Below are positions 7,910 to 58,700 of a stretch of DNA of 64,000 nucleotides, in pieces. Below the pieces are notes generated by a model. The model made no database searches. It saw only the letters and a program-made list of their open reading frames with translations, and was not told the DNA's origin. The stretch's first letter is position 1; every line of letters begins with the position of its first letter. Origin of the DNA: a virus. The stretch spans positions 12,450 through 76,449 of the IMG/VR virus record IMGVR_UViG_3300028025_002044; one strand, given 5' to 3'. A program made the translations under genes and the position numbers.

Positions 7910-7911
7910 GA

Positions 7912-34688: not shown

Positions 34689-34741
34689 GTCTAGAATCCT
34701 CCGATAGCGGCGACAAGCCAATGGCTATTCATATAAACCTA

Positions 34742-34774: not shown

Positions 34775-37700
34775 TTAATACTTTATCCTATAGGGGATTT
34801 GGTTTGCGTTTAGCTTTTGAAGCAGGTCAGTGATTTCGGCAGAGCTCTTGGTTTCGCTTAGTTTAGCCATATCAATCGATATGGCATCTTCATCGTTGTC
34901 CTGAGACTCGGCCAAGCTGGGGTAGTCAATGGCTTTACGGCTATCATCCAACTCTACTGACTGCATAAACGAGTACCCCATTTTGGTGAGCTTGTCGCTG
35001 TGATAAATCTTCCTGTTAGTTAGTTTGTTAGCAAAGGCAAGTAGTCCGGTGGCTAGGTGACGGCGTTGGTAAGGTTCGTTGGTGTAGATACCGTCAATGT
35101 ACATTTCATTTGCTAGACCGTCGGCCATAGGGTCGCCAATCTTAGTGCCAAATGTGGCTACAGCGCCGGCTGACGGATTTGCTGGGTCATAAGCATCTAT
35201 CCATATGTATGTATCTAGCGCCTGCGGGTCGTAGTCACTTTCCTTCAAAGAAACTTTGGCAGATAGTTTATATGGACGGCCGTACCTGTCTTTGTATGAC
35301 GCAGTTATTTTGGTGGTACTCTCTACAACCGTAGGAGTCTCGCGCTCTGTTGTAGTAGCACCGTCGAAGTCTATGTCTAGATTTTCGGTAGCCTTTTCCA
35401 TTATATTATCTTCACGCATGGCAGGCACCGAGAACCAGGAATCGTAGTGCTGGCGTCTAATAGATTTTAGGTTCTTTACCCTATTTGAATTAGAACCAAA
35501 CTGTTTTTCGGCTTCGGCAATCATGTCTGCATATGACTTCAACTCGGCTTCTTGATAGTCCTGCAGCGGAATACCGTAAGGGCCTGAAGTAAAGTCATAT
35601 GCTCGCTCTTTGTCTAGGTCTAGGTTCGGGTCAGCCGGGTCGAAAGGCTCGCCGCCAAATTTCATTAGCATAGGTGCAGCACTGTCAGGGCTGTCTGATT
35701 CAGTGGCAGCGTCTGCAAATCGCTTAGCGTTTCGGTCTACCTTAACATCCGTCATTCTAACTGGACGCTCTAGATATAGCCCATCTAGGCCCTTTACGCG
35801 GCTTAACGCAGTGTAAAGCTGGCCTGTAGCAAATGCACCATCTCCTAAATCAACCTTTAGATTGCTAATGGTTTTGCCTTGAAGCTTGTGGATAGTAGCT
35901 GCCCAGGCGAGCATCAAAGGAATCTGCTCATAGGTTGCTTCAGTAAATGGAGTCAGTTTATTGGTGACCTGGTTGCTAATGCTGTCTACTTGCTGACTGG
36001 CATCGTAGCCAACTTTATCCCACATGCTAGGGTAGACGTCATAAACGTTGTCTCCAACTCTAACCTTGACGTGGTCCTCTTCGAGAGCTACCACTTTTCC
36101 GATGGTTCCGTTTACCCATCTGCGAGCGGTCTTCTGGCCCTGACCAGACTCCTGATCTACGCTGTCTTTAGAAGAGCTAGGGGTGTCATTCCTGGTAAAC
36201 ATAACCTGAGCCCCAACCTTAAGGAAGAGCTTTTCCGGAGCAGGAAGCATGTCAAATGCTGGCTGTCCGGCACCACCAAACTCTCCGGTATATGTCTGAG
36301 ATTTGACGTTTCCTAGCTTGTCCATCTCCTCTTGGTTAATTTCGTCGGCTAGAGCGTTAGTTGTAACGGCGTAGATTAGGTCATTAACCGATTGAGCCAC
36401 TGGACGCATGCCAGCTTGATTGATGAAATCTAAGTCTTCCTGAGTAAATCTGCCTACTCGGATGTTGTTTAGGACCTTCTTAAATTCAGGGTCTGATTGA
36501 CGGAACACTTCGCTAAGTTCATAGACTTCTAGAGGCTGGTCAACCCAAGCTCTGGCGTCAAAGAAGAACATGCTCCTGTAGTTCTTCTCCATGTAGTCCT
36601 TGAGCTGAACGTCGCGCTTACCTACGAATGGAGACAGCTGGTATACGTCACCAAAACCAACAAACTGCACACCACCGAATGGTACGAATGGCTTGCCTTT
36701 TACATTCCTCAAAATTCTGTCCATAGCGTCTAGTAGGTCCGCTGAAACCATGGATATTTCGTCTACAACTAGGGTGTCTAGAGCCGCTAGGGCAGCCCTA
36801 ATTTTAGCCTTCTTTTTCGCATTTCCAATAATTAGCTGGCTTGCAGGAGTCTCGCCGTACACAATACCAGGCTTAAGTCCAAACAGAGAGTGGATGGTCG
36901 TGCCGCCAACATTTTCGGCTGCAGTTCCAGTGAATGACACTACAGCAATAATTTTTTCAGTAAAGTCACGGAAGAATTTAAGCAAGAATGATTTACCGGT
37001 ACCGGCTTTACCGGTAATAAATACAGGGCTCTTAGTGCTTTCTAGGTGGTTGTATAGCCACTGTTGCTCCGCAGACAGGTCGCCTTCTACAGTCGCCCGC
37101 TGTTCTTTATTTTTAACTGCAGGAATTTGGATAGGCGAGCCGTCTAAGTTATTCTTAGGTACATAGTTCTCTAACTTAGACTTATCAAATCCTTCTGGAA
37201 TGTCTATGCCTGACACAGGCTCGCCGTTGGCAATTCTCTTATCTAGAAGTGCCCCTAGAAGATCTTTCTTTACGGCCTCGACTAAGTTAGCGTCTATGAG
37301 CGGAAGCACACTCCAGAGTTCTCTAGCACGCTGGTCTGAAACCACACCTGACTCTTGAAGAATGTCCTGAACTGTTCTTAGGTCGGCAGTAGTTGGAGGG
37401 TTTACAGTAACCTGAGTCTCTATAGAAGGAGAAGTGTTCTCCTCCCCATTCTCGTACTTCATAAACATTGGAGTGGTTTTTGGCTGGTCTCGTAGGTAGT
37501 CCAAGAACTGGTCTACGGTCATGTTGCCGACGTTTTCAGGGACAGGTCGCTGCTGGGTGACAGGAGCTTCCTGTATAGGAGCGTCCGATCTTTTTCTAGG
37601 GGCGGCCATTTTGTCAGCTTTTTTGCCGTCAATTTTTTTAGCTCGTAGGCTGTCAAACTTAATTAAGTATTCTGCTAAGTCTTTAGTTCCAGACTTGGTT

Positions 37701-40700
37701 AGGAACTTGCCCCTGACGGACTCGAGGACAGCTTTGTACACTGGCTCTGGTAGGTATCCCCAGTTGTATAGGTTAGTAGCCTTTATGAAAATTAAATCTA
37801 AGTCATCCTTAGTAGGCATCATGTCATCGCTGTGGAAGGCTAGCTCTCCGGGCACAACCGAGTATCTCTGCTTTTGGATAGGTAGGAAGTCAGACAGAGG
37901 GATATTCTCGAATGAGAAATCTCCGTTTTCATCAGCGATTGCAATAGTTAGAGCGCCCTTGGCAGGGAATCCTACAATCTTACCGCGCTTGTCTGTGCCC
38001 TTAATAACGCCAAACATCGTGTCGCCCACCAAGATTCCGTCGGTACCTGGAGTTATGAAGCTTTCGGTCACGTTTTCAATGTCCGCAGGGTTAGTGATTT
38101 TAAGAGTGTAGTATCGAATATCGCTGTAGCCAGCTACGCTAGGTAGACCTGACTGCACTCTTCTAACACCCTTCTCATCGAATTCGTCATCAACAAAGAA
38201 TCCGGTATCGTACGAGTCCTCTGAGCCGTCTAGGTATTTAACAATTAGGCCGGATGAGGTACCTTCACCAGGATTGACCATCTCTCCGTAGACCACGCCA
38301 ATTTTACCGGTCTTCTTGTTCATAACATAAGCACCCGGGTGTAGCTGCTCTAGGTCGTACTGAGAAGTCTCCTCAGAAGAACTCTCTTCCGGCCTAAAAC
38401 GTTCAGGCACACTCTTAGGCTCAACTTTTGATGACCAAACACGAGGCTCAAATTGCATGAACATGGGCTTGCCCTGGCCAGTGGCCGGAGTAAGCATGTC
38501 TTCATTGTTGAAAATAAAGTACGGGTGGAATGAGTCTGGCCAACGCTCTGCATTTGCTTCCTCGGTGTCAAATCCAAATGGAGCTATTGCCCAGCCCTTA
38601 TCAAGCTTTTTAGAGTTTGAGCTAGCTACGTAGTTAGTAACTACCATTGTAGGTAGGAACGGAACGTTTGCCTCTATAGCGGCGGCTATACGGTGATTTC
38701 CGTCTAGCACAAATGCAGTCTTATTTGCAGGATTGTACGAAATAATTATCGGAGTTGCTGGGAGTGCGCCAAGTCCCATAGACCTGACCATCTTTTCGAT
38801 TTTGTCTTTGTCGAGGTCTGTGTTGCCAGGCATTCCTGCTAGGGCGGATGGTTTTACGTAGCCAACGACCGAGTTAGATGAGCCTAAGCCGCCATCAGGG
38901 TCAGTGGAGATGTCTAGCCCATTATTGAACGAATCCGCGTAGGAAGCGGTTAGGTAATCCAGGTCTTGCTCGAAATTAGCAGCTCTAGTAATTCCGGCAG
39001 GAGTTTCAAATTCTCTGTCAGGGATTGACTCTGTAGAGACTAAGTCAGCTTCAATGTAAGTGCTGAACGCGTTAGGAATCTCATAGCCTTCCGAGTCAAG
39101 TCTAGGGGAACGGCTAACTTCTAGGACTCGAAGCTTAGCTCCAGCGTTGAGAAGCACCTCGCGCTCACCGTCTTTGTATGTCAGACCCTGAGGCATGACA
39201 ATTGCATTTGAGCCTTTAGGGGCACGGATGATTAAGAAGAATCCTTCTTCGTTAGATAGGAGGCTGGCCGAGCCAGGACCAAAGTCGTCGTAAGCCACTA
39301 CTGGAGACATACTGGTAGAACTGAATGACGGCAGTGTAATCTCATCGCCAGGCTGAGCATCGATTAGTGCATCGTGCTGAGCATCTCCCGGGTTTCCAGT
39401 AGAACCGTGGTAGAGATACATGTTTCTGTCTAGCTTGGCTTCAGGCTTGGCAAATGCAGCAGTCAGACCACGGAGCATCGACTCTGTCATGTCAGCAACC
39501 GTGCGAGACATTTCTTTGCCCTCGAGTAGGTTAGAAATCCATCGCCACCCGCTATAGCCGTAGTTCTTGAGGGCAGACTTTTCTTCAGCAGTAAAGATGT
39601 CTTTATCTACTGGATCGGCGTATGTCCTAGGCATGTCGTAGTAGCCGTCCCAGATTACAGGGTAGCCCTGCTCGTCGTCTTTCCACTCATCCGAGAAGTT
39701 CATGAACTGGAACTTAGGGTCTTGGAAATGTTTAGCTAGGTTGTATTTATCTGCTTTGCCGAATACGAGACCATCGTATGCACTCTTTAGAGCACCCACG
39801 TGAGCCATGAACTTAGTTTTTGCGAGCTCTTTTGTGCCTTCGGATGAATTAGGGTTATTCCTAGTAGATAGGTAGTCTTTTTCAGCATTTAAGGTGCTTG
39901 AATAGATGCTTCTAATAAATGCCGAGTCGTCTTCACCTAGGTTGGTGCCTACCGGTGTCAGGCCGTTTTCATAGAATGAGCGGCGTCTGTTGAACTCTAC
40001 TATAAGTTCAGGTTCTTCTGCAGGCTCAGGGAAGTTAGGTTTGCTGGATTCTGAAGAAGCCATGCTTATAACTTCGCGCGGGCGAACGCCAATTGGGTTC
40101 TTTCCAGCAATTTTTTCGTTATAGAAGTCGACAAAATCTCTTAGGTACGGAGGGATGACACCTTTTTCGGTAACCCACATGTACATGGCGTAGAAGTATT
40201 CTGCAAAGTTTTCTCGGACACTGGTTGCGCCGTAGTTAGACATTGGCTTATCGCCAAATTTCTCTTCAAACTCCCGGTAGAGAGGCATGGACTCATCGCC
40301 CATATACAGTGAGCCAATTCCATGGCCGTATTCGTGAATTTGAGTCCTAGAGAACCTGTCTTTAGCGTCAGGTCCACCCATTACGGCATTCGTCCCCCCT
40401 ACCTGAGCATTTTTGTTGCCATAGCCAGCGGTGCTTAATCCAAAGAATACGCCGTGCTCTCCAGCTGTCGCGGCAATCCCACCGACATCTTCATTATCAA
40501 TTAACGTCTCGTAAGTGAAACTTCCGTTAGGGAATACAGTGTAGTAAGTCGGAACGTTGCCTAGATTGTTAAGCGCACCTAGAACCCTAGCATTTGCGAC
40601 TATGTCTGACAGCATTTCAGGGGTAGCTATTGCATCTTTTACCCTGATGAATTGGTTAGTTCCGTCTATCTGGAATACGCGGTATGTAGACTGGTCGCTA

Positions 40701-43700
40701 GAAGCTTGCTTAACCTTAGCGATAAAACCTAGTCTTAGTGCGTCAATATCCTCTTGCGACATCCGAGAGAGTTCTGCTGGAGAGTACATATTCTCAAGGT
40801 AGTTTTTTCTGAAGTAAGTTTCATTAAAGTTTCCGTTAGCATCTACTAGAGACGGTACAAGACCAGACTCGGAGTCTGTACCGGCTAGCCAGTTGCCCTT
40901 AGAGTAGCCCTCCATGGAACGTTCCAGCTCCCTGAGGTTCTCTCCCGTAATCTCTACTAGGCCGTCAACGGGGACGCCTCCCACGGAAGCACTAGGCATA
41001 CGCATTAACATCGGCTTAGAGCGGTTCTTCTTTTCGACAATGTGCTCGACCACAAGATCAAATACGTTGACGGGCTTGACATTCATGTCGGATATAAGTG
41101 CGTCCATGTAGTCGGTAAATTCTTGGTTTGCCGGGGCCTGATTAGCCATCCTCGAGTACAAGAAGTCAAAGAATAGCTCTGCAAATTTTTCTGAGTGGTC
41201 ACCTTCACCGTATGAGGATATGTAGGTATTTTCAAATCTCTCTTTGAAATCTTTTGCTAACTCAAATACTTCGTTATTTCTCAGGGTGGAACCGAATATT
41301 GCTCGGTGATAGGCGTGGCCATACTCATGTAGGAAAGTTAGTACCGACTCTGGGATGTTTCCAGAGTTGTGTAGTCGACGACGACCGCCGGGGCCTTCAG
41401 TAAATCTAGGGTCAAATCTATTCTCGTAGAAAGATTCTTTTCTCAGAGCGATGTTTAAGTTGCCGCCAGTAAAGGTGAAAAATGCAGATGTGCCCATGAA
41501 TTCTGGCATATCTTGGTACAGCAAGGCCATCTCTTCGTTGGTAATTAGAGATACTGTTAGTTTTCTATTACCGACAGGTGCAATTTCTCGCGCCTTTGTA
41601 ATCATCTTAGCGAGCTTCTCTAAGTGAGTAGGAGTTATTTCCACGCCATCGGCTTTATTGTAAGTAATGTAGCTATTTTTACCTACCTTTAGGGCAACCA
41701 TGTTTTCTAGAGATGATCGGTCTTGCATCTTAGCTTCAAAAAGAGCTTCTGCTTCCTCGAGCTTAGCTAAATTCTCTTCAGTAGGGTTCTGATATATCTC
41801 ACTTAATTTATCGGGTCCACCTAAAGCTGAAGCTAGGAATTTATTTCTAGCATAGTTGACATCAATAGATGCTTTTTTATTGTTGAGAACAGACTTAATT
41901 AGCCTCTTCTTTTTTGACCCGGTAACTTCTGATACATCTACCCCGCGCATTCCGCTTAGCACGCTGTCAGAAATGGTAGAACCTGCATCATCAATAAATC
42001 TTTGTAGGCTTAGCTTTGTTGAAGGAGTATTTCCACCACGCTTATCGTTGGCTTTGATAAATTCAGAAATATACTCCGCTGCCTGAGCCCTAGTCATACC
42101 CTTAATAGGTGCAAGAATTCTTTCTTGCTCGTCGGTGTCAAATCCAGACTTCTCTAAATACTTTCTAAAGCCATACTTGTCGGTACCATTTTGCTTGTCG
42201 GTAGCCGGCCCATTGGGGCTAATTCCTGATAGGAATTTATTCATTCTCTCCGAGTAACGTTTTGCTAGAGCATCCTTGTCCAGTGCTTCTAATTTTTCGT
42301 TAGGTTTTTGGCTAGCCATTTCAAGTGAGCGCATGACAAGGCGGAATGCGTCCTCAGCATCTGCATCCGCACTGTGCCATCTAGTAGTGTCAAATCCTAG
42401 GAACTTAGCTACATACCCAAGGCTAGTTGTGGATACAAAATTGCCGGAGCCCTTCTCGGTCTCTTTTTTAGGCCCGTCTACGCCATTCTCAGGGTCATAC
42501 TTAGGGATGATGGCATCGATAAGGTCCTTAGAGTCCACAGTTCCAGCTACGCTGAAATCAGTTACACCGGCTTTGTCAAGCATTCTCTGGAGAACTTCAA
42601 GGTCAAACGGTACGTTCTGCCCACCAATAAGAGGGTTGTTGCCCATGAACTCAATCATTTGACGTACGGCTTCTTCGGTGCTCATCTGCTTTGACAGCCA
42701 TTCGTCAGTGACTAGGTCGTCACCAATAACCTCTCCTGTAGGAGACACCACATCCCTCTTGAGATTAGCTGCTGACCATTCTCCTAAAGGAGCTTCAGGG
42801 TTGAGGTAGATATTAAATCTGCCAGTAACCTCGCCCTTTTCTACCTTAACGATACCGACCTGAACGGCGTTGTTCGGCTGGTTGTCTCCGTCGTAATCGC
42901 TGATACCAGTGGTCTCGGTGTCGAAGTAGTAAATAGGAGTGTCTAGGTTCTTAATGAAGTCTAGAACCTCGGCCCAGTTCTTGCCTTGGACAGCGTCAAG
43001 TAGAGACCCCGTGAACGCGCCCGGAGTAGGCTGACGGTCGCGGCCGACGTCCATAGTGGTTGGGTTTAGAACCATGCCGAGCGGTGTGCCAATATTTTTA
43101 TCGGACAAGAATGACATAGCAGCTGGCTTAGGATTGACTTCTTGTACATGTACTGGAGGTAAGTCAGAAAGACTCTTTGTAGGGACATATCCATCCAACT
43201 TGGACATGTCGTAGCCCCTAGGCGCACGTTTTGCTAATAAGTCAGATACCGGATACCCATTTGCAATTCTCCAGTCAAGTTCTAGATTATCTAACTTGCT
43301 TATAAGATCAAAGACTTTTGCTTTGTTCATGCTAGGCAAATCGCCAGCAATCTTTTTAATTTCTTCTGGAGACAGCAGGCCAGGTATAGATAGTCTCCTA
43401 GCTACACTCTGTAGCTCTTTCTTAGTTGCAACTTCCGAAGAAAAATCAAAACCATCTTGGAATAGGAATAACGGTCTGTACGGTTCAACATCTTCGCCAC
43501 TCTCTACTCTAGCGTCGTAGTCAGCCCTACGCCTGTCTTCCATTTTTCTAAGCTCGCCAAGTATTCGATCCTTCTCCGCCTGGGTGTTCCAAGCAGCCAT
43601 AGTGAAGAGCTTAGGTGAGTTTCTCTTACTAGGATTCATAAAGTATACGCGGGTAGTTCGTACCCGAGTCTCTTGCTTGCCAGGCTTTCTTGGCTCTGGT

Positions 43701-46700: not shown

Positions 46701-48922
46701 ACGCCATTTCCAAGACTTCCGCTGTCCCCCGGCATTCCAGAAATGTCTTGGGTTGCATCATCTGATACAGGTCCATCCGGAATAGTGACGTTAATATCGC
46801 TGGTATCGTTCGGGTCCTCGATGCCGTGAATTCTGTTATAGATACGCTGAAGAATTTCCTTACGGAATTCTTCCGGCGTGAATGTGTCCCTGTGATTTCT
46901 AGGGATGTCTATAGTTATCTGCCAGTGACTGAATTTGCCGTCAGGCTTTTTTTCTTGGCTACGCTTAGCAGTTCCCTTAGCATCCTTGCTATACGCAACT
47001 GTCGTAAACAAATCTTTGTGGACAAATGTTCCATCATTAGTTTTGACTGAGAAGTCGTCAAAAAGTCTGATGTTACCATTTTGATCGATTTCGTACTTAA
47101 GCTTGTTAGTTAGGTATCCAGAAGCGCCGATTTCTCCGCTTTCCGGCAATGGCTGAGCTGGCCGCTCTTCTGTGGTCGCTGGCTGGTCGCCCGCGGCTGG
47201 CTGTTCTACGCCAGGTATCGGCTCGCCGTTCTCGTCTTTAGTTGGCTTGTACGAGCGGTATTTCTGAGACAGCTCCTTAGATGGAAGAACTACAGTTCCA
47301 TCTTTATTGGTGTAGTACTTACCGATAAGCTCATCGACAGACCAGCCGTTGTCCATTCTCCAGTTGAGCTCGGCGTCATTAAGTTCTTTGATAACCTTGC
47401 CAACGGTTCCCTTGGTTAGGGTAGGTATCAAATCATTTATTTCTTTAGCTCTTGCCTCAGATACAATCCCTGGGTAGCGACCCTCGTTAATTCTGCGATT
47501 GATGCTGTCAATCTGCCTTTGCGTCGGAGCGTTCTCGTCGGCAGATGGCTGATCTGCGGTAGGTGTTGGTTTGGCTTCTTCGGTCTTGGCGGGTGCCGCT
47601 GACTTCATGTCAGCTTTTCTATTAACCTTCTTGCCTTTTTCGTCAATTCGGTGGAGTACAGGGGTCTGCCTAGGGATTCCTTTCAGAGTAAGTACCTGTC
47701 CAGTTTTAGCCAGCTCTATGGTGGCGTCGTAGGTAATCTTTAGTACATCTGCATTTTTATTCTCAGTAAATCCTACAAAGTACGCTTCTTGCTGAGAAGG
47801 TCCCTCGCCAACTAAAATTACATCCCCACGCTTTAAGTCTGGTATGAAAGTTTTTATGGTAGTTCTGGCAGGTTTTTTAGCGTCTACTGTGGCTTTCTTT
47901 TCTTTTTCCTGCTTAGGAAGATCAAACTTGTCCGTTGAGTCATAGCCATCAGAGACAAGAATGTCGCCATTTTCGTCAGCAAAATCTATTTTGAATGAGC
48001 CAGGGGCATTTTTACTGGCTTTCTTAGATGCAACGACCAGGGTCTTTCCGTCAATTACAACCGAGTCGCCCTTCTTTAGGTCCTTAGCGGTGACTTTTCC
48101 GCCGTCTTTGAATGCCATGAGCTGTAGGCGAGCTTTGACCGAAGCCTTTTCTTTATTGCCTTCTGCGCTATCTGCGTCCTCGGCTGGCACCCAGACTGTC
48201 AATAGGTCTTCAGGGTCGCTTTCAGTTCCTGGAGTACGCTCTCCGTCCTGCCAGCGAATTATTGGACGCACTTTGCCATTGACAAAGTCAACCTGAGTAA
48301 CAATACCTAGGCGGTTACCATTCTCGTCTCGGACGATTACACCGGCTTTTAGATCGCCGTATTTAATAGAACCAGACTCTGCAGTCTTGATGACCTCTTC
48401 AAGGTCAGGCATGTCTTCGACCTTGGAAGTAGCTGCTGCAATATCTTCATCGGTCGCTGGCTGAATGTTTAGGTCGTCAATGTTAGGAATATCGGTGTCT
48501 TTGCGAGCACCAACAATGTTTCCTCGAGTGTCTTCGCCAAGCTTGATGCCACGGCTACGCAGATAGTCTTCGCTAAGCGAGGTAAGAATCTCACGGAAGT
48601 TCTTGTTAGATACTTCAACAATTCCAGTGCCTAGAATCGGGTCGTCTTTTACGTAGAACCGGCCATAGCCAGGGCGAGAGGCAGGGCCGATGTAAATACC
48701 AGTACCGTTTTGAGTTGCCCCTCCTTTATCCCTAAACTTAAACTTGTGGCCACGGCCCATCTCAGCAAATCGACCAAAGCGGTCACGTAGCTGTTCCGCA
48801 GCGTTAGCGCGACGCTCCGCCGAGGTGTAGTTCTTCCACCAACCCCAGAGGCGACCAGCTAGACCTGCAGTAATAGGCTGCAGGCTGTCGTCGTCAGGGG
48901 CTGTAAAGAATAGGTCAGACAC
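34775..48922 (-). CDS. giant polyvalent protein (4715 aa): DEDDh exonuclease, two zincin metallopeptidases, VIP2-like ADP-ribosyltransferase, ParB/Srx, PIF1-like helicase, GNAT acetyltransferase
   Basis: FDTETTG...HSADADAED; HEYGH twice, each with S-x-Y...E-x-FAE; YHG...SSTS...EREVLL; LDGNHR; GKAGTGKS...DEISMV...TIHKLQG...YTALSR; YQRRHLAT. GTG start overlaps the upstream TAG; RBS AGGAG. Confidence 0.9.
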   Translation of the reverse strand: MSDLFFTAPDDDSLQPITAGLAGRLWGWWKNYTSAERRANAAEQLRDRFGRFAEMGRGHKFKFRDKGGATQNGTGIYIGPASRPGYGRFYVKDDPILGTGIVEVSNKNFREILTSLSEDYLRSRGIKLGEDTRGNIVGARKDTDIPNIDDLNIQPATDEDIAAATSKVEDMPDLEEVIKTAESGSIKYGDLKAGVIVRDENGNRLGIVTQVDFVNGKVRPIIRWQDGERTPGTESDPEDLLTVWVPAEDADSAEGNKEKASVKARLQLMAFKDGGKVTAKDLKKGDSVVIDGKTLVVASKKASKNAPGSFKIDFADENGDILVSDGYDSTDKFDLPKQEKEKKATVDAKKPARTTIKTFIPDLKRGDVILVGEGPSQQEAYFVGFTENKNADVLKITYDATIELAKTGQVLTLKGIPRQTPVLHRIDEKGKKVNRKADMKSAAPAKTEEAKPTPTADQPSADENAPTQRQIDSINRRINEGRYPGIVSEARAKEINDLIPTLTKGTVGKVIKELNDAELNWRMDNGWSVDELIGKYYTNKDGTVVLPSKELSQKYRSYKPTKDENGEPIPGVEQPAAGDQPATTEERPAQPLPESGEIGASGYLTNKLKYEIDQNGNIRLFDDFSVKTNDGTFVHKDLFTTVAYSKDAKGTAKRSQEKKPDGKFSHWQITIDIPRNHRDTFTPEEFRKEILQRIYNRIHGIEDPNDTSDINVTIPDGPVSDDATQDISGMPGDSGSLGNGVGYSIDKRGNVVIHGDIDQGTPNGDAVDRIVFGNHEGYTLVAQVDDVTGALVINLDSENKSIPISQHAKTLLNALKESLSASEPEPEPEPEPEPEQETEVSTSEPRRLANGELADPTRGERTGEAGNGQLGPDSMQVEFSRFQDRTLGIFVKRGDDLPQPEFDPNNLQQATDWVKYQDLVIRQAIRKAISLALSLSKEDTPSFVLGKAGHQLEMNADLTPSEWKSLLDNISDAIADAVDNMPAEIQKWVNRDNEKKAAEEAAKKKKDDADAAEKASWEELHGSVLSPSQRSGFLGQLKDAVANGIITKERETEIKNQMRDGKFGTKDLELVQAELSGEKPAEESEAEAEEDKPESSTELILEDGKSVPNALDLVIKSLPKDVQEKFNRLFSRITTDKYYSISEDKIESDLRIYFDFIDTVVSKAMNLLVERYERQSSEGNADAEDILNSSADALIAYINDRYYWSQVYNRIVLDTVGEDRLLDYVDNYKERLIETVNSQRQDQLKSRREKLAAWKEKHGEPLNESQKDKLVDSVIDAYVEDYITEERKEELIAQIKGKDFGTKDIDKFLADLEKEKAASEDTSGEPEAEEDQPTEEPAAEPEPEADQPAATPTPKPFIPATTNVGAIRDLIDAASDADKPKWDKNVVLPAVVGKSAGGAVRVDDSMFRPATGKTIADIRIEIFDAFGNDAGFVTAIGKWEATDDEVDLFVSQAKDILAEAIAEANKVFNDLQSKSDTVLEASDDLLTIVVNRVRQALSDRGIIEAEGIDNLPKTQEELDSIRSPEPEAKPAVDEAKQREIEELKTAGPHELKHFEEIVPGTFVEVKEDGKPSVWKKVKSVSKIKYREEGKDYISYVDVVYEDDTDQRIVESFSMPMVSQVNPLTGEFEEQDEDEERELTPDRELETVQGSEIVVGDLVWDRIRGFARVMSKPKPDDKDPNVLLIEITRPGDTTPRRLRVRRTSKLSIAKRDGSTAPSTPAPGGEPSRPTPTPEPRPTPAPRPEPRKPGKQETRVRTTRVYFMNPSKRNSPKLFTMAAWNTQAEKDRILGELRKMEDRRRADYDARVESGEDVEPYRPLFLFQDGFDFSSEVATKKELQSVARRLSIPGLLSPEEIKKIAGDLPSMNKAKVFDLISKLDNLELDWRIANGYPVSDLLAKRAPRGYDMSKLDGYVPTKSLSDLPPVHVQEVNPKPAAMSFLSDKNIGTPLGMVLNPTTMDVGRDRQPTPGAFTGSLLDAVQGKNWAEVLDFIKNLDTPIYYFDTETTGISDYDGDNQPNNAVQVGIVKVEKGEVTGRFNIYLNPEAPLGEWSAANLKRDVVSPTGEVIGDDLVTDEWLSKQMSTEEAVRQMIEFMGNNPLIGGQNVPFDLEVLQRMLDKAGVTDFSVAGTVDSKDLIDAIIPKYDPENGVDGPKKETEKGSGNFVSTTSLGYVAKFLGFDTTRWHSADADAEDAFRLVMRSLEMASQKPNEKLEALDKDALAKRYSERMNKFLSGISPNGPATDKQNGTDKYGFRKYLEKSGFDTDEQERILAPIKGMTRAQAAEYISEFIKANDKRGGNTPSTKLSLQRFIDDAGSTISDSVLSGMRGVDVSEVTGSKKKRLIKSVLNNKKASIDVNYARNKFLASALGGPDKLSEIYQNPTEENLAKLEEAEALFEAKMQDRSSLENMVALKVGKNSYITYNKADGVEITPTHLEKLAKMITKAREIAPVGNRKLTVSLITNEEMALLYQDMPEFMGTSAFFTFTGGNLNIALRKESFYENRFDPRFTEGPGGRRRLHNSGNIPESVLTFLHEYGHAYHRAIFGSTLRNNEVFELAKDFKERFENTYISSYGEGDHSEKFAELFFDFLYSRMANQAPANQEFTDYMDALISDMNVKPVNVFDLVVEHIVEKKNRSKPMLMRMPSASVGGVPVDGLVEITGENLRELERSMEGYSKGNWLAGTDSESGLVPSLVDANGNFNETYFRKNYLENMYSPAELSRMSQEDIDALRLGFIAKVKQASSDQSTYRVFQIDGTNQFIRVKDAIATPEMLSDIVANARVLGALNNLGNVPTYYTVFPNGSFTYETLIDNEDVGGIAATAGEHGVFFGLSTAGYGNKNAQVGGTNAVMGGPDAKDRFSRTQIHEYGHGIGSLYMGDESMPLYREFEEKFGDKPMSNYGATSVRENFAEYFYAMYMWVTEKGVIPPYLRDFVDFYNEKIAGKNPIGVRPREVISMASSESSKPNFPEPAEEPELIVEFNRRRSFYENGLTPVGTNLGEDDSAFIRSIYSSTLNAEKDYLSTRNNPNSSEGTKELAKTKFMAHVGALKSAYDGLVFGKADKYNLAKHFQDPKFQFMNFSDEWKDDEQGYPVIWDGYYDMPRTYADPVDKDIFTAEEKSALKNYGYSGWRWISNLLEGKEMSRTVADMTESMLRGLTAAFAKPEAKLDRNMYLYHGSTGNPGDAQHDALIDAQPGDEITLPSFSSTSMSPVVAYDDFGPGSASLLSNEEGFFLIIRAPKGSNAIVMPQGLTYKDGEREVLLNAGAKLRVLEVSRSPRLDSEGYEIPNAFSTYIEADLVSTESIPDREFETPAGITRAANFEQDLDYLTASYADSFNNGLDISTDPDGGLGSSNSVVGYVKPSALAGMPGNTDLDKDKIEKMVRSMGLGALPATPIIISYNPANKTAFVLDGNHRIAAAIEANVPFLPTMVVTNYVASSNSKKLDKGWAIAPFGFDTEEANAERWPDSFHPYFIFNNEDMLTPATGQGKPMFMQFEPRVWSSKVEPKSVPERFRPEESSSEETSQYDLEQLHPGAYVMNKKTGKIGVVYGEMVNPGEGTSSGLIVKYLDGSEDSYDTGFFVDDEFDEKGVRRVQSGLPSVAGYSDIRYYTLKITNPADIENVTESFITPGTDGILVGDTMFGVIKGTDKRGKIVGFPAKGALTIAIADENGDFSFENIPLSDFLPIQKQRYSVVPGELAFHSDDMMPTKDDLDLIFIKATNLYNWGYLPEPVYKAVLESVRGKFLTKSGTKDLAEYLIKFDSLRAKKIDGKKADKMAAPRKRSDAPIQEAPVTQQRPVPENVGNMTVDQFLDYLRDQPKTTPMFMKYENGEENTSPSIETQVTVNPPTTADLRTVQDILQESGVVSDQRARELWSVLPLIDANLVEAVKKDLLGALLDKRIANGEPVSGIDIPEGFDKSKLENYVPKNNLDGSPIQIPAVKNKEQRATVEGDLSAEQQWLYNHLESTKSPVFITGKAGTGKSFLLKFFRDFTEKIIAVVSFTGTAAENVGGTTIHSLFGLKPGIVYGETPASQLIIGNAKKKAKIRAALAALDTLVVDEISMVSADLLDAMDRILRNVKGKPFVPFGGVQFVGFGDVYQLSPFVGKRDVQLKDYMEKNYRSMFFFDARAWVDQPLEVYELSEVFRQSDPEFKKVLNNIRVGRFTQEDLDFINQAGMRPVAQSVNDLIYAVTTNALADEINQEEMDKLGNVKSQTYTGEFGGAGQPAFDMLPAPEKLFLKVGAQVMFTRNDTPSSSKDSVDQESGQGQKTARRWVNGTIGKVVALEEDHVKVRVGDNVYDVYPSMWDKVGYDASQQVDSISNQVTNKLTPFTEATYEQIPLMLAWAATIHKLQGKTISNLKVDLGDGAFATGQLYTALSRVKGLDGLYLERPVRMTDVKVDRNAKRFADAATESDSPDSAAPMLMKFGGEPFDPADPNLDLDKERAYDFTSGPYGIPLQDYQEAELKSYADMIAEAEKQFGSNSNRVKNLKSIRRQHYDSWFSVPAMREDNIMEKATENLDIDFDGATTTERETPTVVESTTKITASYKDRYGRPYKLSAKVSLKESDYDPQALDTYIWIDAYDPANPSAGAVATFGTKIGDPMADGLANEMYIDGIYTNEPYQRRHLATGLLAFANKLTNRKIYHSDKLTKMGYSFMQSVELDDSRKAIDYPSLAESQDNDEDAISIDMAKLSETKSSAEITDLLQKLNANQIPYRIKY
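46418..46460 (-). repeat. Glu-Pro dipeptide repeat linker
   Basis: About six GGCTC(T/C) hexamer copies on + encoding EPEPEPEPEPEPE. Confidence 0.85.
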
Positions 48923-49200
48923 TACTTAATCTCCTGTGAGCCGTAGAGTTCCTGGTACTTTTCTGGGTTGTTTTTTGTCCACTCCAAAAAATAGTCTAAA
49001 TCTTCCCTAGTCTGGTTGAATAGGTTTTTTGCTGGGTCCATGCCGGTGCGCAACTTAAGCTCTTCTCTGGCATCTTCGTTTTTAATAACTTCCCACAGAA
49101 ACTTTAGGTCAGAGTCAGTAGCAGTTTTTAGGTCAATTTCGACATTCTGAGCCGAAACACCGCTGGTAAGGCGAACACTAATTACCTTGCTTTCAGCCAT
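48922..49200 (-). CDS. small helical protein, paralog of 49200..49472
   Basis: Shares AREELK-x-R-x-G-x-DP-x-K...W-x-KN with its neighbour; translationally coupled on both sides. Confidence 0.8.
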   Translation of the reverse strand: MAESKVISVRLTSGVSAQNVEIDLKTATDSDLKFLWEVIKNEDAREELKLRTGMDPAKNLFNQTREDLDYFLEWTKNNPEKYQELYGSQEIK

Positions 49201-49472
49201 TATTCGTTCGACCCTTCGTCACTAGATTCAACTATAATTTTATCCCGATTTGCCGAAGTCTGATTTTTCTTCCATCTGGTGTAGAATTTTACATCAGCAG
49301 GGGTGTAGTCTTCTACGGCCTTGTACGGGTCAAACCCAATACGATTCTTTAGTTCTTCCCTAGCCTGAGCTATGTTCATTTTTGCGTATATACGCAGCTC
49401 TGCCTCAGAAATCTCAGAAAAGACAACATCGACTACTTTAGACCCGTCCGGGCCGTCAATAATTATTTGCAT
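49200..49472 (-). CDS. small helical protein, paralog of 48922..49200
   Basis: AREELKNRIGFDPYK...RWKKN; RBS AAAGGA. Confidence 0.8.
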   Translation of the reverse strand: MQIIIDGPDGSKVVDVVFSEISEAELRIYAKMNIAQAREELKNRIGFDPYKAVEDYTPADVKFYTRWKKNQTSANRDKIIVESSDEGSNE

Positions 49473-49500
49473 AGGTATCCTTTGTGTAAGCAGATACAGC

Positions 49501-49632
49501 TTACTGGGCGATTTCTGACTTGTCTAGTTCTAAATCATAATCCTCTGCGTCGTCTGCATTAGGAGAGGCAATTCCCAACCAATACTCTGGGTCGGTTTCT
49601 GGGTCGAAGTTATCAGGGTTGTAGCGGTCCAT
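49501..49632 (-). CDS. small acidic protein (43 aa)
   Basis: Hand translation MDRYNPDNFDPETDPEYWLGIASPNADDAEDYDLELDKSEIAQ*; RBS AGGAG. Confidence 0.65.
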   Translation of the reverse strand: MDRYNPDNFDPETDPEYWLGIASPNADDAEDYDLELDKSEIAQ

Positions 49633-49654
49633 AGCGTCTCCTGTCAAAAGTAAT

Positions 49655-49675
49655 CCTTTATAGTATAGCAAGGAA
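49655..49675 (-). promoter_or_regulatory. putative extended -10 promoter (TG-C-TATACT)
   Basis: Minus strand TTGCTATACTATAAAG directly downstream of a terminator. Confidence 0.55.
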
Positions 49676-49687
49676 TGTTAAATTTGA

Positions 49688-49713
49688 TAAAAGTAAAGCC
49701 CCCTTTCGGGGGC
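49688..49713 (-). terminator. rho-independent terminator after the 3115-aa gene
   Basis: GCCCCC-GAAA-GGGGGC followed by TTTACTTTT on the minus strand. Confidence 0.85.
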
Positions 49714-49727
49714 CTCACTTTTTTGTT

Positions 49728-52700
49728 TTATGCAGGAGTTATGGTCGCATCTCCATCTAGATTTTTCTTTAGCTCGGATAGAATTCTCATTCTGTCTCCA
49801 AGGCCGGTCTCACCGCTTAGGGTTACGAACCAGTACTTGTTCCTTCCGTGGAAGATGAAACTAAATGGACGCTTCTTACCTTCCGGTACAATTCCCGTAC
49901 CCTTGATAATTTCTTTGTTGGCTGCGGTGTTACCCATAAGGATTACGCTCTCACCTTCGATGCGATAGTTAACGCCCTTGCCAAGTCCGCCAGAAGTTCC
50001 GTCTTCGCCAGTAATCTCGCCCTGAGGCATTTCAATAGCTTCTACGGTCTTAGCTTCGGTTTCTTCGTTCAGGTCAACCATGCCATCGACAGATGCCCAG
50101 TATCCACCAAGAATGTGCTCTACAGCCTTGCTAGCTAGCGATGCAGCCTCGTGAAGAGCGTTAGGGTCGCCCTTTAGCCACTCAGCCCATGACTGAACAT
50201 AAGCAGCAACGTTCTCAATTGAGGTGTTGACGTTCATCATCTGAGCAAGAATTGCAGAGCCAATCTCAGCGATAAGCTCCTCACGAGCACGGACATCCTT
50301 GTGGGTGCCGTAGTTGGCTAGTAAGTCCTTGCGGTCTAGACGGTTCTGGTGTCCGGTGCTGTGGGTGAGCTCGTGGAACAACGTGTCTAGGTGCTCTTCA
50401 GTGCTGCCGAACTGGTTTCTTAGAGGCAGTCTAATGACGTCCTCTGTAGGGCTCCAGTAAGCACTGTCCTGAGGGATGTACTCGATTGCAGGCTTGTCGG
50501 TGTAGCTATCAAGAACAATGCCTTCAACCTCAGAGATTGCAGGCGGGTCCTTGCGAACAAGCTGAGGAAGCTCTATGCCTTGGATTTCGTCTTCGTTGTA
50601 AACGATGTCTAGGCCCATCTTGGCAAACTTCTTAGTGACCGTTCTGGTCTCTGTCTTAGTCTTGTCAGGGTTGTCTGGGTCCGGAACCTGTACTTGCTCT
50701 TCCTTGTCGTACTTCTTGGTCGACACGAAAGTAATAATTACGCCAGGGTCCTTACCATCTTCACGCTTGTTGACGTAACCGCCAAGCTTGCTGATGGCGT
50801 TCTTGGTGTACCACCTGGTCCCCTGGTACTCGCGGTTCATACCGACTGCCATAAGAGCTAGCAGGTTCAATCCTCGGTAGACGCGTCCGGTAGCACCCGA
50901 AGTAGGCAAGAAGCCTCCTTCTCCGGTCCAAGGCTTCTTCCAAGGAATAATTCCCTTCTCCATGGCCTCGAGAATGCTGGCAACAACCGTGCTAACAACT
51001 TCCTGGTTGCTCTTGTTGACGCTCTTGATTTCTTCAGTCAAGTCAACCTTGATAGGGTTTTCGTCCGAGCCTAGCTCGCCTGGCTTAGGAGTTACTGCCT
51101 GGTTGTCATCAATGTTGTCGGCCGCATCGAATGCCATAAGCATAAGGTTTTCGGTCTGAGTGCCATCTGACTCGCCTAAGCGTAGAGACAGTTCTTCAAT
51201 CTTGGCTCGTAGCCCTAGAATCATGCTTCTATTCTTACCTGCTGAACCACCAAGAGAACCGGTCGGAGAGCGTAGCGCCCATCTCTCAGCGTAGGTTAGA
51301 AGTTTAGGGTCTAGGTTTCCGCTGAGCAACTGCTGAAGTGCTTCTTTAGCTGTAGCGAGATTACTCTGGTCTATCTTTTTAAAGTAATCCGGGTCAGCTT
51401 GGATATCAGCAATTTGCTGCTCTAGTGAAGAAATCTGTCTCTCCAACTCCTCATCGGGGAGGTAGGCAACTTCTCTATCAGCCGGCTTCCGAGAGAGTTC
51501 TCTCTTAGCTTCGTCAATAGACTTCTCAATGTTGGCAATCATTTGCTCGTTGTACGCTGGGTAGTTGAACTCTCCAGGCTCTCCGGCAAAGCTCATTAAC
51601 TGAGGCTTCTTGCTGTTGGCTTTTCTTTCGTCAGCAATTTTCTTGTCTACCTTGGCTAGCTCTTTTTCAAGGGCCGCTATTTCTTTGACGAACTTGTTAG
51701 CCTCTCCACTTGTCTCTATCTCGGCAATCTTCGCAGAGATTTCGGCGCGTTCCTTAGTAAGCTCTGGTGATACTGCAGAGTTAGAAATAGTAACGGTGTC
51801 CGGCTTGTTAGTAGGAGCCTTCTTTTCTTTACCAGTCTTCTCAAAGTTTCCGTCAACAAAGAATGCAAGTGATCCAGGGTATAGAACTTTAATAGCACGG
51901 GTAAGAGCTACATATGCAATACGTAGTTCTTCAGGGTCCTGCCACTTAGGGAATTCTGGAGCTGGCTGGCCTTCCTCTGGCTCCTTCTCGCTGTCAGGGT
52001 TAAAGAAGTCGTCCCAGATTACGACTCTGTCGTATTCCAGACCCTTAGCGCCGTGAGTGTTGGTAGCAATTAGATTGGCGTCGGAACCACTGAGAGCCGC
52101 AGTAAGCTGCTCGACTAGATCGCTTCCTCCAGCAACCTTGTCAGCACCTTCAATAGGCTTTTCATACCAGTACTCCATCTTAGGCTTACCATTCTTATCT
52201 ACCTGCCCGGCTATCTCCCTGTAACGTGACTCAAAGCCCGCATTACGTAGAGTTAGACGGTTGTTGTAGGTTCCAGAGCGTTCCTGCTCGTCTGTAGAAT
52301 AGAATCTCTCTCCGGTATCCATTACCTTTAGCATGTCACCGTCTACTTTGTACTTGATGCCATTGCCTAGCTTTCCTTCTTTGGGAAGATACTTCTGGCC
52401 CTTAAGCTTTTCAGGAAGAGAGAATCCCTTCGTCTTAACTCTAAGGTTTGCTACAATCTCTTCAAGCTGGTCAATCGCATCGATTACGCTTCTTTTTTCA
52501 AAGTCGCGCTGGATTTTGCTAACGATATTGAAAATAGCATTTACTTCAGCATCGTTGCTATTCTGTTTCCTATCGATTAGGTCTTCCCAAGTTCTAAGTC
52601 CAACTAGTGGAGTGTAGAAGTTATTCGGCTTTCTGTTGTATTTGAATGGAGGGTCTTCTGGGCGTCTGGAATTAGCAGACTCGCGCATCAACCATCTGAC

Positions 52701-55700: not shown

Positions 55701-58700
55701 GCGGTCAGAAAAGTCCTGCTCTTCTGGGGTAAGAGTTAACTTTGGAGTGTATCCATCTAGAGTGAACTTACTGTTACCACTGTTAAATCTGATGACAGAT
55801 TCAATAGCTTTCTTGTTTCCATACCACTCAGGTAGAACCATGTTGTCAATCGGTAGGCCGTACTCTACAGCTTGGATAACGTGAGGTCCGATGTTATCTG
55901 GAAGAGTGAACTTGGTCTTGTCATCGATAGGAAAAACTAGAGGACTGCCTACATCAAAGCGAGTGCCATTGTAGATGCTGAAATACTCGGACTGGAAGTT
56001 TTCTCTAGTGTCTTCAACTTCAGGCTCTACGTCCGCTGGCTCCGGGAGCGGGGGTAGGAAAACAGGAATACGTTCGAAGTTGTCATAAACTTTTTCGGTA
56101 CCGTCATCGAAAATTACGGTGTAGATACCGTCATCGTTCAGGATGTCGACGATACCCTTAGCAACGCCATCAATGACAATCTTGTCTGCGTTTTCGTCTC
56201 CATAGCGAAGGTCCTCAGCGAAAACATCGGTGGTTGGTAGTTCCTCTGGCTCATATGCTTCAGGGATAACAACGCCATCAACAAGCTCAATGTCATCATA
56301 GTTCTGACCGTTGGCAATTCTCTGGTTGACCAAAGTCTGAACGTAGTCAAGCTCGCGAGCCTTAAGGTCGTTCATAAACTGGTCGCCAACTTCCCTACGG
56401 GTTAGGTTTGGAACCTTGGCAAGAATCTCTGCGGCCTCTTCTTCGGAGATGAGTCCAGGGCGACGCTCAATCATGCGCTCTAGGGCTGCTAGCTGGCGCG
56501 GAGAAGCTCCGTTGTCTCCTAGGGTAGTGAAGTACTTACTCTGGGCCTCAGGGACGTACTGGTCCTTGTATGGGGCATCCTTGTGGTCTTCTAGCCACTC
56601 AGCCACCTCGGCGTCAGTCATGTCCTGGAACTCTTGCTGGAAGTTAGGGTAGTTTTCGTCTGGATTGTCGCCAGCGTCAATTAGGTCTTGTAGCTTGCGG
56701 TTCCTTAGGAATGACTCGACGGCTACGGTCTTACCTGGGGTAGGGGCGTACTTAACTAGAGACGAAGTGAGGAACTCAGGGGCTACATCCCTCTGACCCT
56801 TTTGAACAGCTACGTCCAGTGCGGTCGGTTTAGGGGTAGACAATGACTCAAGCAGAGCGTTGTCCTCGCGATCGTTCTTGCTTGCCCATGGCCAAGAGTT
56901 TACTTCCTGCAGAACAGGGTACATAGGGTCATTGCCCTGGTCCTTGGTGTAGTTGTACAAGTTTGCTAGAATCTCTACTAGGCGGTCTTCATTGCCTGCT
57001 GCAGGTCTGTGGGCAGCCAAAGCCTTCTTTAGCTTTTCGCGAATCTCGCTAGGAACTTTCCTCATGAACTGAGGGTAGCCTTTTTCATTTCTGGCATTAG
57101 GCTGCTGAGTCGAACGAATAATATCTGCAAACGCGGTAGCCTCGGCTAGTGTGTAATTGCCAGGGTTTTGAGACATATCATCAAAGAGCTCACCGACTGC
57201 TGGGTCAGAGATGATGTGAGTGTCGAAAGCTTGGTATGTTGCGCCAGACCCTCCGCTTTTACCTTTGGTAGGTATCCACGCTGCAACAGCAGACTCGGCT
57301 GTGTCATCAGGGTCATCCCCGCCTTTTTCTAGACGTTCGCGCTGGTACTGGGCATCATCCTTAACACGGTTGCGTAGCTCCTCTAGAGCGTTGTCATCCG
57401 CGAAGCGCATGAATGGAGGGTTGACGTTCTCCATTTCTTCTGGGTCCCAGCTGATGACTGGAAGATTGGTAGTAGCCGAACTAATGATGTCTTTAACGTC
57501 ATCCCAGCTAAAACCAACACCGGTTGGAGTTCCTAGCATCTGAGATGCGTTTAGGTCATAAACTTCAAAGCTGTCTGGAATACTGACCTGGTCTGCAACT
57601 GGAGTAACCTCGTCGCGAATAGGGTCGTAGACATTGTTAAGCACAGTGCCCAGAGAGCCGGTGCCAAACCTAACAAAGTTCTTGCCATCCTTGCTCTGGT
57701 AGTAGCCGTCTGAAATTTTTTCCCAGTCTTCAGGCATGTTAGCGTCAGGGTCTACTGGCTCGTAAACTTCAGCTGGAATGTCTTCAAGTGCTGGCTCAGG
57801 CTGTGCCTCTGGCTGCTCGGTAGTTGTGGTGGCAGGCGTAGGCTCGTTCTCTGTGTCTGGGTAATCACGGTCTTCCTGGGTAGCAAGAAGCTGAGTAGAT
57901 GCCCAGTCCTGAGCATAGCCAACTACTTCTTCCTGGCCGCGCTTGCTAGATACAAGCTCGTAAACTGGCTTGTCTGGGTTTAGCTGGTCAGTACCAAACT
58001 GCCCAATAATCTTTGCGCCAAACTTTTCCTGAGCCTCAGCGATACGCTTTTGAAGTGCGTCGGTAGGCTTGTTGTACAGGCTGGCTTGGTAGCCGTCGCC
58101 GGTAACGAAGCTACGGTCTGAAGCGACCTTGTTAGTTAGACCTCTAACTGCAGGGCCAACCTTAGTTGAGTACCAGCTAGTAGGTAGGTCCTTACGCTTT
58201 AGGTCTTTGATATCAACAAAAGGAACGTTAGAGTTCTTAGCCATAGGAACTAGGTTCGAAACGGCGTGCTCCGGAAGAATAGCCTTGAAGGTGTGAGTCA
58301 AGTTCGATGGAACGGTGTAGATGCCGTCCTTGAACCCCTTAACTCCAGTAACCTCGATGTCGATGCCGTTAGGGTCGTTCTCTGGAATACCAGCAACCTT
58401 ACCAACGATTGAGTAAATGCTCGAGCCGCGGCGAGCGTAGAAGCGGATACCGCCACCCATCTCAGCAAATTGACCCTCGTCGTCACGGCGCTGACGGTTT
58501 GCACGCATTCTACGGTGCCATGAAGAGTTCTTACCTGCGTATGGGTTGCCAAATGCAACTAGAGGCTGAAGAGTTAGCTCTACAGGAACCTGGTCAGCTG
58601 CAAGAGCTTGTAGACGTACGATGTTAAACGCGTAGTCAACCGAGTATGGGTTGCTAGCGTAGACGGCAGCAACGATTGAACGTGCCTCGTCAGACTTGAT

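Follow-up and report, generated by a model that had tools for sequence, protein, structure and literature searches.

Two giant proteins of a tailed phage recorded in IMG/VR carry a short hydrophobic peptide, P-x-[LF]-M-x-[FY], in the linkers between their enzyme modules. The stretch of DNA analyzed here, referred to as the window, comprises 64,000 nucleotides of virus record IMGVR_UViG_3300028025_002044 (positions 12,450 to 76,449), and forms the right-hand 64 kb of a 76-kb contig, the completeness of which is estimated at about 57%. Both proteins, named here giant B (3115 amino acids, aa) and giant A (4715 aa), are polyvalent proteins, combining several unrelated effector domains in one polypeptide in the sense defined for phages and conjugative elements by Iyer, Burroughs, Anand, de Souza and Aravind in 2017 (PMC5512222). 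Comparison of the peptide and its codons within and between genomes shows, as far as sequence can be read, that selection acts on the junction peptide. On balance, it appears probable that the giants are polyproteins bearing a junction processing signal, which would be read by a co-evolving phage-encoded factor, most likely a protease.

The hexapeptide would thus represent this lineage's version of a junction code, situated in the linkers between the enzyme modules of head-associated polyvalent proteins. One phage-encoded, sequence-specific factor would read the junction peptide and co-evolve with it; this reader would most likely be an endopeptidase, and the giants would be cut into about 13 products, namely N-terminal anchor pieces, two exonucleases, UvrD-type and PIF1 helicases, an ArdC-MPTase unit, blocks with the zincins and with the ADP-ribosyltransferase, and further pieces. 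The cut could be made in the prohead or after ejection. We infer that the reader is a protease, and likewise which protease it may be and when it would act.

The junction peptide and its conservation

The preliminary description of the window had listed 13 strong and 2 weak words of this type, and every one of them is found at its given residue in the two giants. The strict form, P.[LF]M.[FY], is seen seven times, as compared to an expected 0.078 (Poisson 3e-12; at most one in 300 shuffles), and a loose form of the motif is seen 15 times as compared to 0.9 expected. The motif is therefore enriched over shuffled sequence, and an enumeration of all gapped three-letter words, performed with no prior motif input, ranked P..M.F first. 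The core [LFA]-M-x-[FY] does not occur in the remaining 11,912 aa encoded by large open reading frames (ORFs) of the window; when all six-frame ORFs of the 76-kb contig are considered, it is found only twice outside the giants, and these two occurrences are taken as chance.

Metagenomic orthologs of both giants, with identities of 55-84%, show which of the words are maintained. At 11 junctions (Table 1) the core is kept in 7-8 orthologs each, with the methionine retained in 79 of the 82 aligned cells, such that these linker sites are conserved down to approximately 55% identity. The 69 distinct site sequences yield the consensus P(65%)-[QSM]-[LF](90%)-M-x-F(97%)-[ED]-[DGE], in which L/F(-1), M(0), and F(+2) show almost no variation across orthologs, position +1 is free, and the flanks are variable. 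Four of the words listed in the preliminary description are present but not conserved, and are to be dropped for this reason: PQFMRK (B-671), where orthologs read PKYIGK or PAFFYK; PMLMRM (A-2640), where they read LGFA; and the weak copies LFTMAA (1775) and VISMAS (2954). None of the four is probably a site.

The conserved sites had been described as lying at domain boundaries and outside the catalytic cores, and this is borne out by the finding that 11 of 11 fall outside the Pfam domain envelopes. A site is present at nearly every module boundary of the giants, rather than once per protein. An AlphaFold model of residues 1320-1720 of giant B, calculated from an alignment of ten homologs, covers two of the sites, B-1353 and B-1680. 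The exonuclease in this model is confidently folded, with a predicted local distance difference test score (pLDDT) of 80-95, and the two motifs (model residues 31-36 and 358-363) are found in coil with a pLDDT below 50, which at B-1680 is about 31. At these two sites the junction peptides are thus modeled as low-confidence coil, in keeping with accessible linkers.

Examination of the codons shows that it is the peptide, and not the DNA, which is maintained. The codons for Pro, Leu/Phe, and Phe differ freely at their third positions among the 11 sites, in agreement with the variation noted in the preliminary description. In a related lineage whose junction peptide reads PSQNRE, the individual sites use either AGC or TCN codons for Ser and either AGR or CGN codons for Arg; DNA repeats, gene conversion, and an RNA signal are contradicted by this pattern.

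The invariant methionine also raises the question as to whether it might serve as an internal translation start, through which each module would additionally be made as a separate protein. Both in this lineage and in most of the others the residue is invariant, frequently with Ala or Ser after it, as at natural N-termini. Nevertheless, none of the 11 junction ATGs is preceded by a Shine-Dalgarno-like word at -4 to -18, as compared to 14 of the 21 listed ORF starts, some of which may not be true starts. Furthermore, P(-3), L/F(-1), and F(+2) are conserved around the methionine with free third codon positions, and peptides that lack methionine (GPSPKEE, PSQNRE, GF.Q..G, and KLSSG) occupy the same junctions in other lineages. 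Internal initiation is therefore considered extremely improbable.

Two motifs from other systems were also compared with the consensus. The beta-clamp-binding motif (QL[SD]LF type) was dropped, since its Q is not conserved here and the hydrophobic register differs; the Prp-type F|A site of ribosomal protein L27 and phage 80alpha is resembled only in Q-F-x-A, and does not account for the invariant F at +2.

Replacement of the peptide in related lineages

Distant homologs of the giants do not contain P-x-[LF]-M-x-F, and at least 12 related phage lineages each possess a recurring peptide of their own. Among these are h-[IV]-E-[EDNQ]-M-[AS]-[ST]-P (5-6 copies), P-[ST]-[IV]-[ND]-[RK]-M-A (7 copies), [IL]-D-[KR]-M-A (8-11 copies), G-P-S-P-K-[EQ]-E (12 copies), P-S-Q-N-R-E (11-16 copies), P-D-x-E-M-N-M-P (4 copies), I-[IM]-M-D-P-P (3-4 copies), [LF]-N-M-A-[VI]-P (4 copies), G-F-x-Q-x-x-G (for example GFAQEPG; 11-24 copies), R-[FL]-S-S-G (14-20 copies), and K-L-S-S-G (14-18 copies). 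Methionine is the commonest anchor residue across lineages, although it is not universal. As simple word enumeration misses degenerate motifs, and did not rank first the known IEDMAT motif of locus L086, loci in which no motif was found are not evidence of its absence.

Homologous junctions can be compared directly. Upstream of the giant B exonuclease, between the conserved stretches G-x-Y-x-A-G and K-P-x-M-x-x-F-x-P-P-x-F, the lineage of the window has Q-L-M-x-F, and other lineages have I-E-D-M-S, I-D-K-M-V, V-D-K-M-I, or F-E-Q-E-M-A-S. At the junction that precedes the giant A exonuclease, P-A-A-M-S-F is replaced by G-P-S-P-K-E-E, P-S-Q-S-R-E, or P-A-Q-N-K-E, and at that preceding ArdC-N, P-M-L-M-A-F is exchanged for I-D-K-M-S, G-P-S-P-K-E-E, G-P-S-Q-N-R-E, F-N-M-A-I-P, and further Met-centered words. 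One peptide is common to all junctions within a genome, while between genomes it changes at all junctions together, even though the portal proteins are still 71-81% identical. Such concerted change is the pattern expected of many sites that track a single trans-acting reader.

The restriction of the motif to the giants is likewise not peculiar to the window. The genome of the PSQNRE lineage is complete (137.5 kb with terminal repeats, assembled from eight regions), and its 16 copies of PSQ.[KR] all lie in the two giants, with none in the remaining six-frame ORFs. In each of the at least 12 lineages with a specific motif, no copy was found in the portal, Dps-like, protease, or capsid proteins, or in the other ORFs of the locus. 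A motif copy beside the protease domain was looked for and not found in any lineage examined.

One alternative that requires no trans-acting reader is that the motif arose as a by-product of module joining, either as a preferred linker cassette propagated through intragenic recombination or gene conversion, or as a short element capping the neighboring domains. Polyvalent proteins are highly mosaic (PMC5512222), the motifs mark exactly where modules are exchanged, and some lineages contain low-complexity linker repeats such as PDEPPTPPSGG, all of which would suit this origin. Gene conversion, however, would homogenize the sites of one genome, whereas their codons and flanks differ, and the occurrence of different motifs between conserved flanks would need repeated parallel replacement under selection. 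Neither of the two modeled motifs, moreover, is placed against the folded domain; both are in low-confidence coil. An origin as a joining by-product is thus regarded as quite improbable.

Several further features of the related giants were noted. A 94%-complete related phage (locus L176, G003:C1:38000-57999, ORF 640-15042) encodes a single giant of 4801 aa in which G-F-x-Q-x-x-G recurs 24 times and two zincins of MPTase type are present, and in the complete genome G002 the second giant comprises 5983 aa. In another lineage, the 2087-aa giant encoded by the first ORF of L016 contains [LI]-P-[EA]-G-[YW] 13 times, possibly as part of a small domain that is repeated and not as a junction peptide. 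A PHROGs search with the large ORFs located downstream of the giants of the R[FL]SSG and KLSSG lineages returned nothing informative.

Candidate readers of the junction peptide

The preliminary description had proposed that the giants are cut by one of their three zincins, by the prohead protease, or by a host protease. A host protease fits poorly, because the motifs differ between lineages. The phage-encoded candidates are the prohead (S78-like) protease domain within a 1551-aa protein, the MPTase-PolyVal zincin of giant B, and the two HExxH zincins of giant A (Table 1).

Zincins of the anthrax lethal factor/PPEP family recognize long linear motifs within disordered segments, and repeated sites are present in PPEP substrates. 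The giant A zincins resemble these M34 zincins (lethal factor, PPEP-1 and PPEP-2; PDB 2L0R, 1YQY, 6FPC) in possessing an HExxH motif and a downstream helix, E-x-F-A-E, that bears the third ligand. In an alignment of nine zincins from seven loci, H96, E97, H100, and E142 are invariant, and a profile of the giant A zincins and their counterparts matches the catalytic domain of lethal factor in the PDB with E=1.7e-5 to 5.7e-4 over approximately 65 residues, as compared to only E=0.63 for a single zincin sequence. The likeness is a distant one: no Pfam family is assigned to the two zincins even at E<=10, such that the ATLF model is not reached, and although the AlphaFold model of the zincin has a pLDDT of 80, its best Foldseek matches, lethal-factor chains and PPEP-2, are weak (E>=0.0097, template-modeling (TM) score 0.42-0.48).

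As would suit a reader that changes along with its sites, the lethal-factor-like zincins are only 16-24% identical between lineages, and those of giant A have no tblastn match at E<=1e-3 in the genome of the PSQNRE lineage. The giants of related lineages contain at least 15 clusters of non-MPTase zincins, other lineages using zincin types unlike those of giant A. Lineages whose motifs are related have a cluster in common: one cluster is common to the GPSPKEE and PSQNRE lineages, and another to the R[FL]SSG and KLSSG lineages. Actinomycetia phage DSL-LC01, the one cultured relative, possesses a capsid protease and has a giant with neither an HExxH motif nor a junction motif, the recurring M-x-D-D words of this giant belonging to a repeated domain.

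There are, nonetheless, a number of observations that weigh against processing by a co-evolving protease. Cutting at the junctions is itself a candidate event, proposed from sequence comparison and models, and none of the three zincins nor the S78 domain could be linked to the motif. A prohead protease usually also cuts the capsid protein and its own protein, yet no motif copy is present in the prohead-protease protein or the capsid protein, either in the window or in any of the lineages tested, and lineages whose motifs are unrelated nonetheless have S78 domains of 67-80% identity (70% in one such comparison). Similarly, the MPTase of the window and that of the PSQNRE lineage are 76% identical, a value that among the compared segments is exceeded by the portal alone (81%), and their active-site helices are nearly identical. 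Shared descent confounds the correlation between zincins and motifs, and the contrast offered by DSL-LC01 is one case only; the GF.Q..G lineage lacks a lethal-factor-like zincin, having a second, divergent MPTase-type domain instead. Finally, MPTase-bearing N4 vRNAP, ArdC, and TraC1 are delivered uncut (PMC5512222).

The MPTase is an unlikely reader, since it remains 76% identical between lineages with unrelated motifs; judging from this conservation, it is more likely to have a conserved target. The reader would therefore be sought first in a lineage-variable zincin borne by the giants, second in the S78-like prohead protease, and third in the ArdC-linked MPTase. Put most specifically, a fast-evolving giant-borne zincin, lethal-factor/PPEP-like in the lineage of the window and of other types elsewhere, would cut a co-evolving junction peptide, with a private protease/site pair in each lineage freeing a dozen anti-defense and takeover enzymes from one packaged chain, a proposal that we advance only tentatively.

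Alternatively, the motifs might be multivalent docking or loading peptides that bind a co-evolving head component, for packing into the prohead or for ordered ejection, in the manner of the T4 capsid-targeting sequence or the cargo-loading peptides of encapsulins. Possible partners would be the scaffold-like part of the 1551-aa protein, the capsid interior, the portal, or the Dps-like 733-aa protein. The giants do lie in the usual place of head-internal proteins; the coil context at the two modeled sites, the peptide-level selection, and the lineage specificity would suit a binding partner equally well; and no protease has been assigned to the motif. The loading peptides of T4 IPIII/Alt and of encapsulin cargo, however, are terminal and present once per cargo, whereas the motifs described here are internal, number 5-6 per protein and up to 24 in relatives, and occur at almost every module boundary. 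Furthermore, the likely partners are well conserved (68% identity for the capsid protein and 81% for the portal) between lineages whose motifs are unrelated, and the capsid N-terminal region contains no lineage-specific element matching the motifs in any lineage examined. Docking, although the most serious of the alternatives, is for these reasons considered fairly unlikely, and sites at nearly every module boundary fit cutting better than loading.

Returning to the proposal of a polyprotein cut by a site-specific protease, then, the parts of it that stand are selection on the peptide, the placement of the sites at domain boundaries, and the indication of a site-specific reader, all of which gain support from the concerted replacement seen in related lineages, while the cutting itself is a step that we infer. 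Among the proteases originally named, the host protease and the ArdC-linked MPTase are disfavored, the two giant A zincins are plausible, and the prohead protease is weakened by the motif-free capsid and protease proteins.

Genome setting and comparison with known systems

All large genes of the window lie on the minus strand, and the giants are encoded between the portal gene and the protease and capsid genes (Table 1), after which connector and tail genes follow. The interval between portal and protease/scaffold genes is the usual place for head-internal proteins. This position is the basis for the prediction that the giants would be packaged in the head and ejected with the DNA. The giant A domains include Pfam matches to RNase_T, ADPrib_exo_Tox, and PIF1, and the giant B zincin matches MPTase-PolyVal (PF18818) with E=4.7e-28; the ParB and GNAT modules named in the preliminary description were not detected in giant A by Pfam at E<=0.01.

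Table 1. Genes, junction words and other features of the window in order of transcription (B and A, giant B and giant A, with residue numbers).
Feature	Position	Strand	Remarks
Portal	61291-63036	-	First in transcription order
733-aa protein	59079-61280	-	Directly after portal gene; ferritin/Dps-like domain (Pfam 9e-11) and DUF5824
Giant B, 3115 aa	49731-59075	-	After 733-aa protein; conserved N-terminal region and enzyme modules (Pfam): RNase_T exonuclease 1399-1585, UvrD-type helicase 1732-2399, ArdC-N 2692-2815, MPTase-PolyVal zincin 2869-2979
R-D-x-x-G-[RQ]-F-A-E-M-G-x-G word, B residues 196-210	58446-58490		Near N-terminus
B-556 PPFMRF	57402-57419	-	Conserved in 8/8 orthologs
B-671 PQFMRK	57057-57074	-	Not conserved
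B-1353 PQLMAF	55011-55028	-	46 aa before exonuclease; homologous junctions of other lineages IEDM, IDKM, VDKM
B-1680 PQFMAF	54030-54047	-	Between exonuclease and helicase
B-2494 PQLMSF	51588-51605	-	After helicase; L-M-x-F invariant though upstream flank rich in indels
B-2647 LMLMAF	51129-51146	-	PMLMAF in most orthologs; 45 aa before ArdC-N; elsewhere IDKM, GPSPKEE, GPSQNRE, FNMAIP
MPTase-PolyVal zincin of giant B	50139-50471	-	Candidate protease
Small ORF, 56 aa	49501-49671	-	Between giants
Small ORF, 90 aa	49200-49472	-	Between giants
Small ORF, 92 aa	48922-49200	-	Between giants
Giant A, 4715 aa	34778-48922	-	Downstream of small ORFs; RNase_T exonuclease 2000-2193, HExxH zincins at 2532 and 2863, ADP-ribosyltransferase 3110-3270, PIF1 helicase 3949-4162
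R-D-x-x-G-[RQ]-F-A-E-M-G-x-G word, A residues 47-57	48752-48784		Near N-terminus
A-269 LQLMAF	48110-48127	-	Orthologs P-x-[LF]-M-[AQ]-F
A-1936 PAAMSF	43109-43126	-	64 aa before exonuclease; elsewhere GPSPKEE, PSQSRE, PAQNKE
Zincin 1 of giant A	41087-41614	-	HEYGHAYH ... E-K-F-A-E-L-F; lethal-factor/PPEP-like; candidate junction protease
A-2640 PMLMRM	40997-41014	-	Not conserved
Zincin 2 of giant A	40094-40621	-	HEYGHGIG ... E-N-F-A-E-Y-F; 24% identical to its paralog zincin 1; candidate junction protease
A-3074 FQFMNF	39695-39712	-	36 aa before ADP-ribosyltransferase
A-3489 PMFMQF	38450-38467	-	Aligned Met missing in 3/7 sequences (P0040, P0042, P0043)
A-3821 PMFMKY	37454-37471	-	128 aa before PIF1
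A-4420 PMLMKF	35657-35674	-	After PIF1
1551-aa protein	30066-34721	-	Next after giant A; embedded prohead protease
Prohead (S78-like) protease domain, residues 821-1253 of 1551-aa protein	30963-32261	-	Match to PHROG head maturation protease (2e-55); Pfam S78 narrowly below cut-off
Major capsid protein	27901-29931	-	After 1551-aa protein
Capsid protein residues 1-217	29281-29931		N-terminal helix and acidic stretch

The major capsid protein is 66% identical to that of DSL-LC01, a lake phage, with more distant matches in Microbacterium, Arthrobacter, Gordonia, and Mycobacterium phages; because of these matches, the host is probably a freshwater actinobacterium. Against isolated phages, giant B gave no match by megablast and helicase-level matches only by tblastn.

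Other features of the head-gene block were observed as follows. Homologs of the 733-aa Dps-like protein in related phages range from 373 to 753 aa. The 92-aa and 90-aa ORFs between the giants look paralogous, having in common A-R-E-E-L-K-x-R-x-G-x-D-P. The N-terminal region of the capsid protein consists of a conserved helix followed by approximately 150 residues of acidic, Glu/Pro/Ala/Thr-rich low complexity, a stretch of lineage-variable length with repeated P-M-E-E-like words. Both giants have the word R-D-x-x-G-[RQ]-F-A-E-M-G-x-G near their N-termini, G-R-F-A and G-R-F-R variants of which occur in two places of the 1551-aa protein; the word is seen again in distant giants, for example as Q-R-R-D-R-K-G-R-F-A-W-M-G-G in L114. 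This shared word may be a head-incorporation or portal-binding element.

In the 1551-aa protein, the N-terminal part matches phrog_2859, a family that in L160 is found together with the head-morphogenesis family phrog_7625 in the large ORF following the giant, and the C-terminal part is long and helical. The matching region of DSL-LC01 is annotated as three separate "capsid maturation protease" genes; in this phage, moreover, genes for an HslV-like protease subunit and for a WhiB regulator precede the head genes (record 37959-38648).

Processing of the giants would have parallels in two well-known groups of viruses. In tailed phages, prohead-protease motifs are short, with T4 gp21 cutting at (L/I)-x-E, and phiKZ gp175 and SPN3US gp245 at (S/A/G)-x-E. 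As in the T4 and phiKZ systems, where the phage protease cuts large proteins at several sites, a short motif recurs here in proteins predicted to be packed in the head. Those motifs, however, also serve the capsid, scaffold, and protease proteins and are stable across very distant phages, whereas the present motif is confined to the giants; it is also hydrophobic and Met-centered rather than of the x-x-Glu type, and is replaced between phages with 81% identical portals. Prohead-protease processing of head-internal and ejection proteins in such phages is treated in PMC5694885, PMC10052503, and PMC9026906.

RNA-virus polyproteins, such as those processed by picornavirus 3C and potyvirus NIa, have a site at each module boundary and an internal protease, and the site co-varies with the lineage. 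The giants are similar in having a motif copy at nearly every boundary, outside the Pfam domain envelopes, and a peptide that co-varies with the lineage; the zincins within the chain would be candidates for the internal protease. Unlike in those viruses, the setting is that of a double-stranded DNA (dsDNA) tailed phage, and the predicted products are packaged and ejected effectors, not replication proteins.

The giants share with the polyvalent proteins of Iyer et al. 2017 (PMC5512222) the exonuclease, helicases, ArdC-N, MPTase zincin, and ADP-ribosyltransferase encoded in a head-gene block. That study predicted autoproteolytic processing of polyvalent proteins by a built-in zincin, and a text search of it found no cleavage-site or junction motif. 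What differs here is a defined peptide at the junctions, its turnover between lineages, and the finding that the MPTase is the least likely reader. In the literature searched, neither a defined junction peptide in polyvalent proteins, nor its restriction to giants, nor rapid concerted turnover was found, and the earlier statement that the motif is undescribed holds within this scope. The P-x-[LF]-M-x-[FY] variant, the whole-genome exclusivity test, the codon argument, and the argument against the conserved MPTase as reader are new.

The junction peptide makes the 2017 processing prediction testable, for example with reporters carrying the 18-base motif against three or four candidate proteases. 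In either case, it provides annotators with a simple aid for splitting giant phage ORFs into functional modules. Should the sites not be cut, the motif would represent a new kind of multivalent head-loading signal. Should they be cut, tailed dsDNA phages would share an RNA-virus-like polyprotein strategy, by which pre-made nucleases, helicases, anti-restriction factors, and an ADP-ribosyltransferase would be delivered together with the DNA, and the turnover of the motif would constitute a natural library of orthogonal protease/site pairs, of which there would be dozens in environmental phages.

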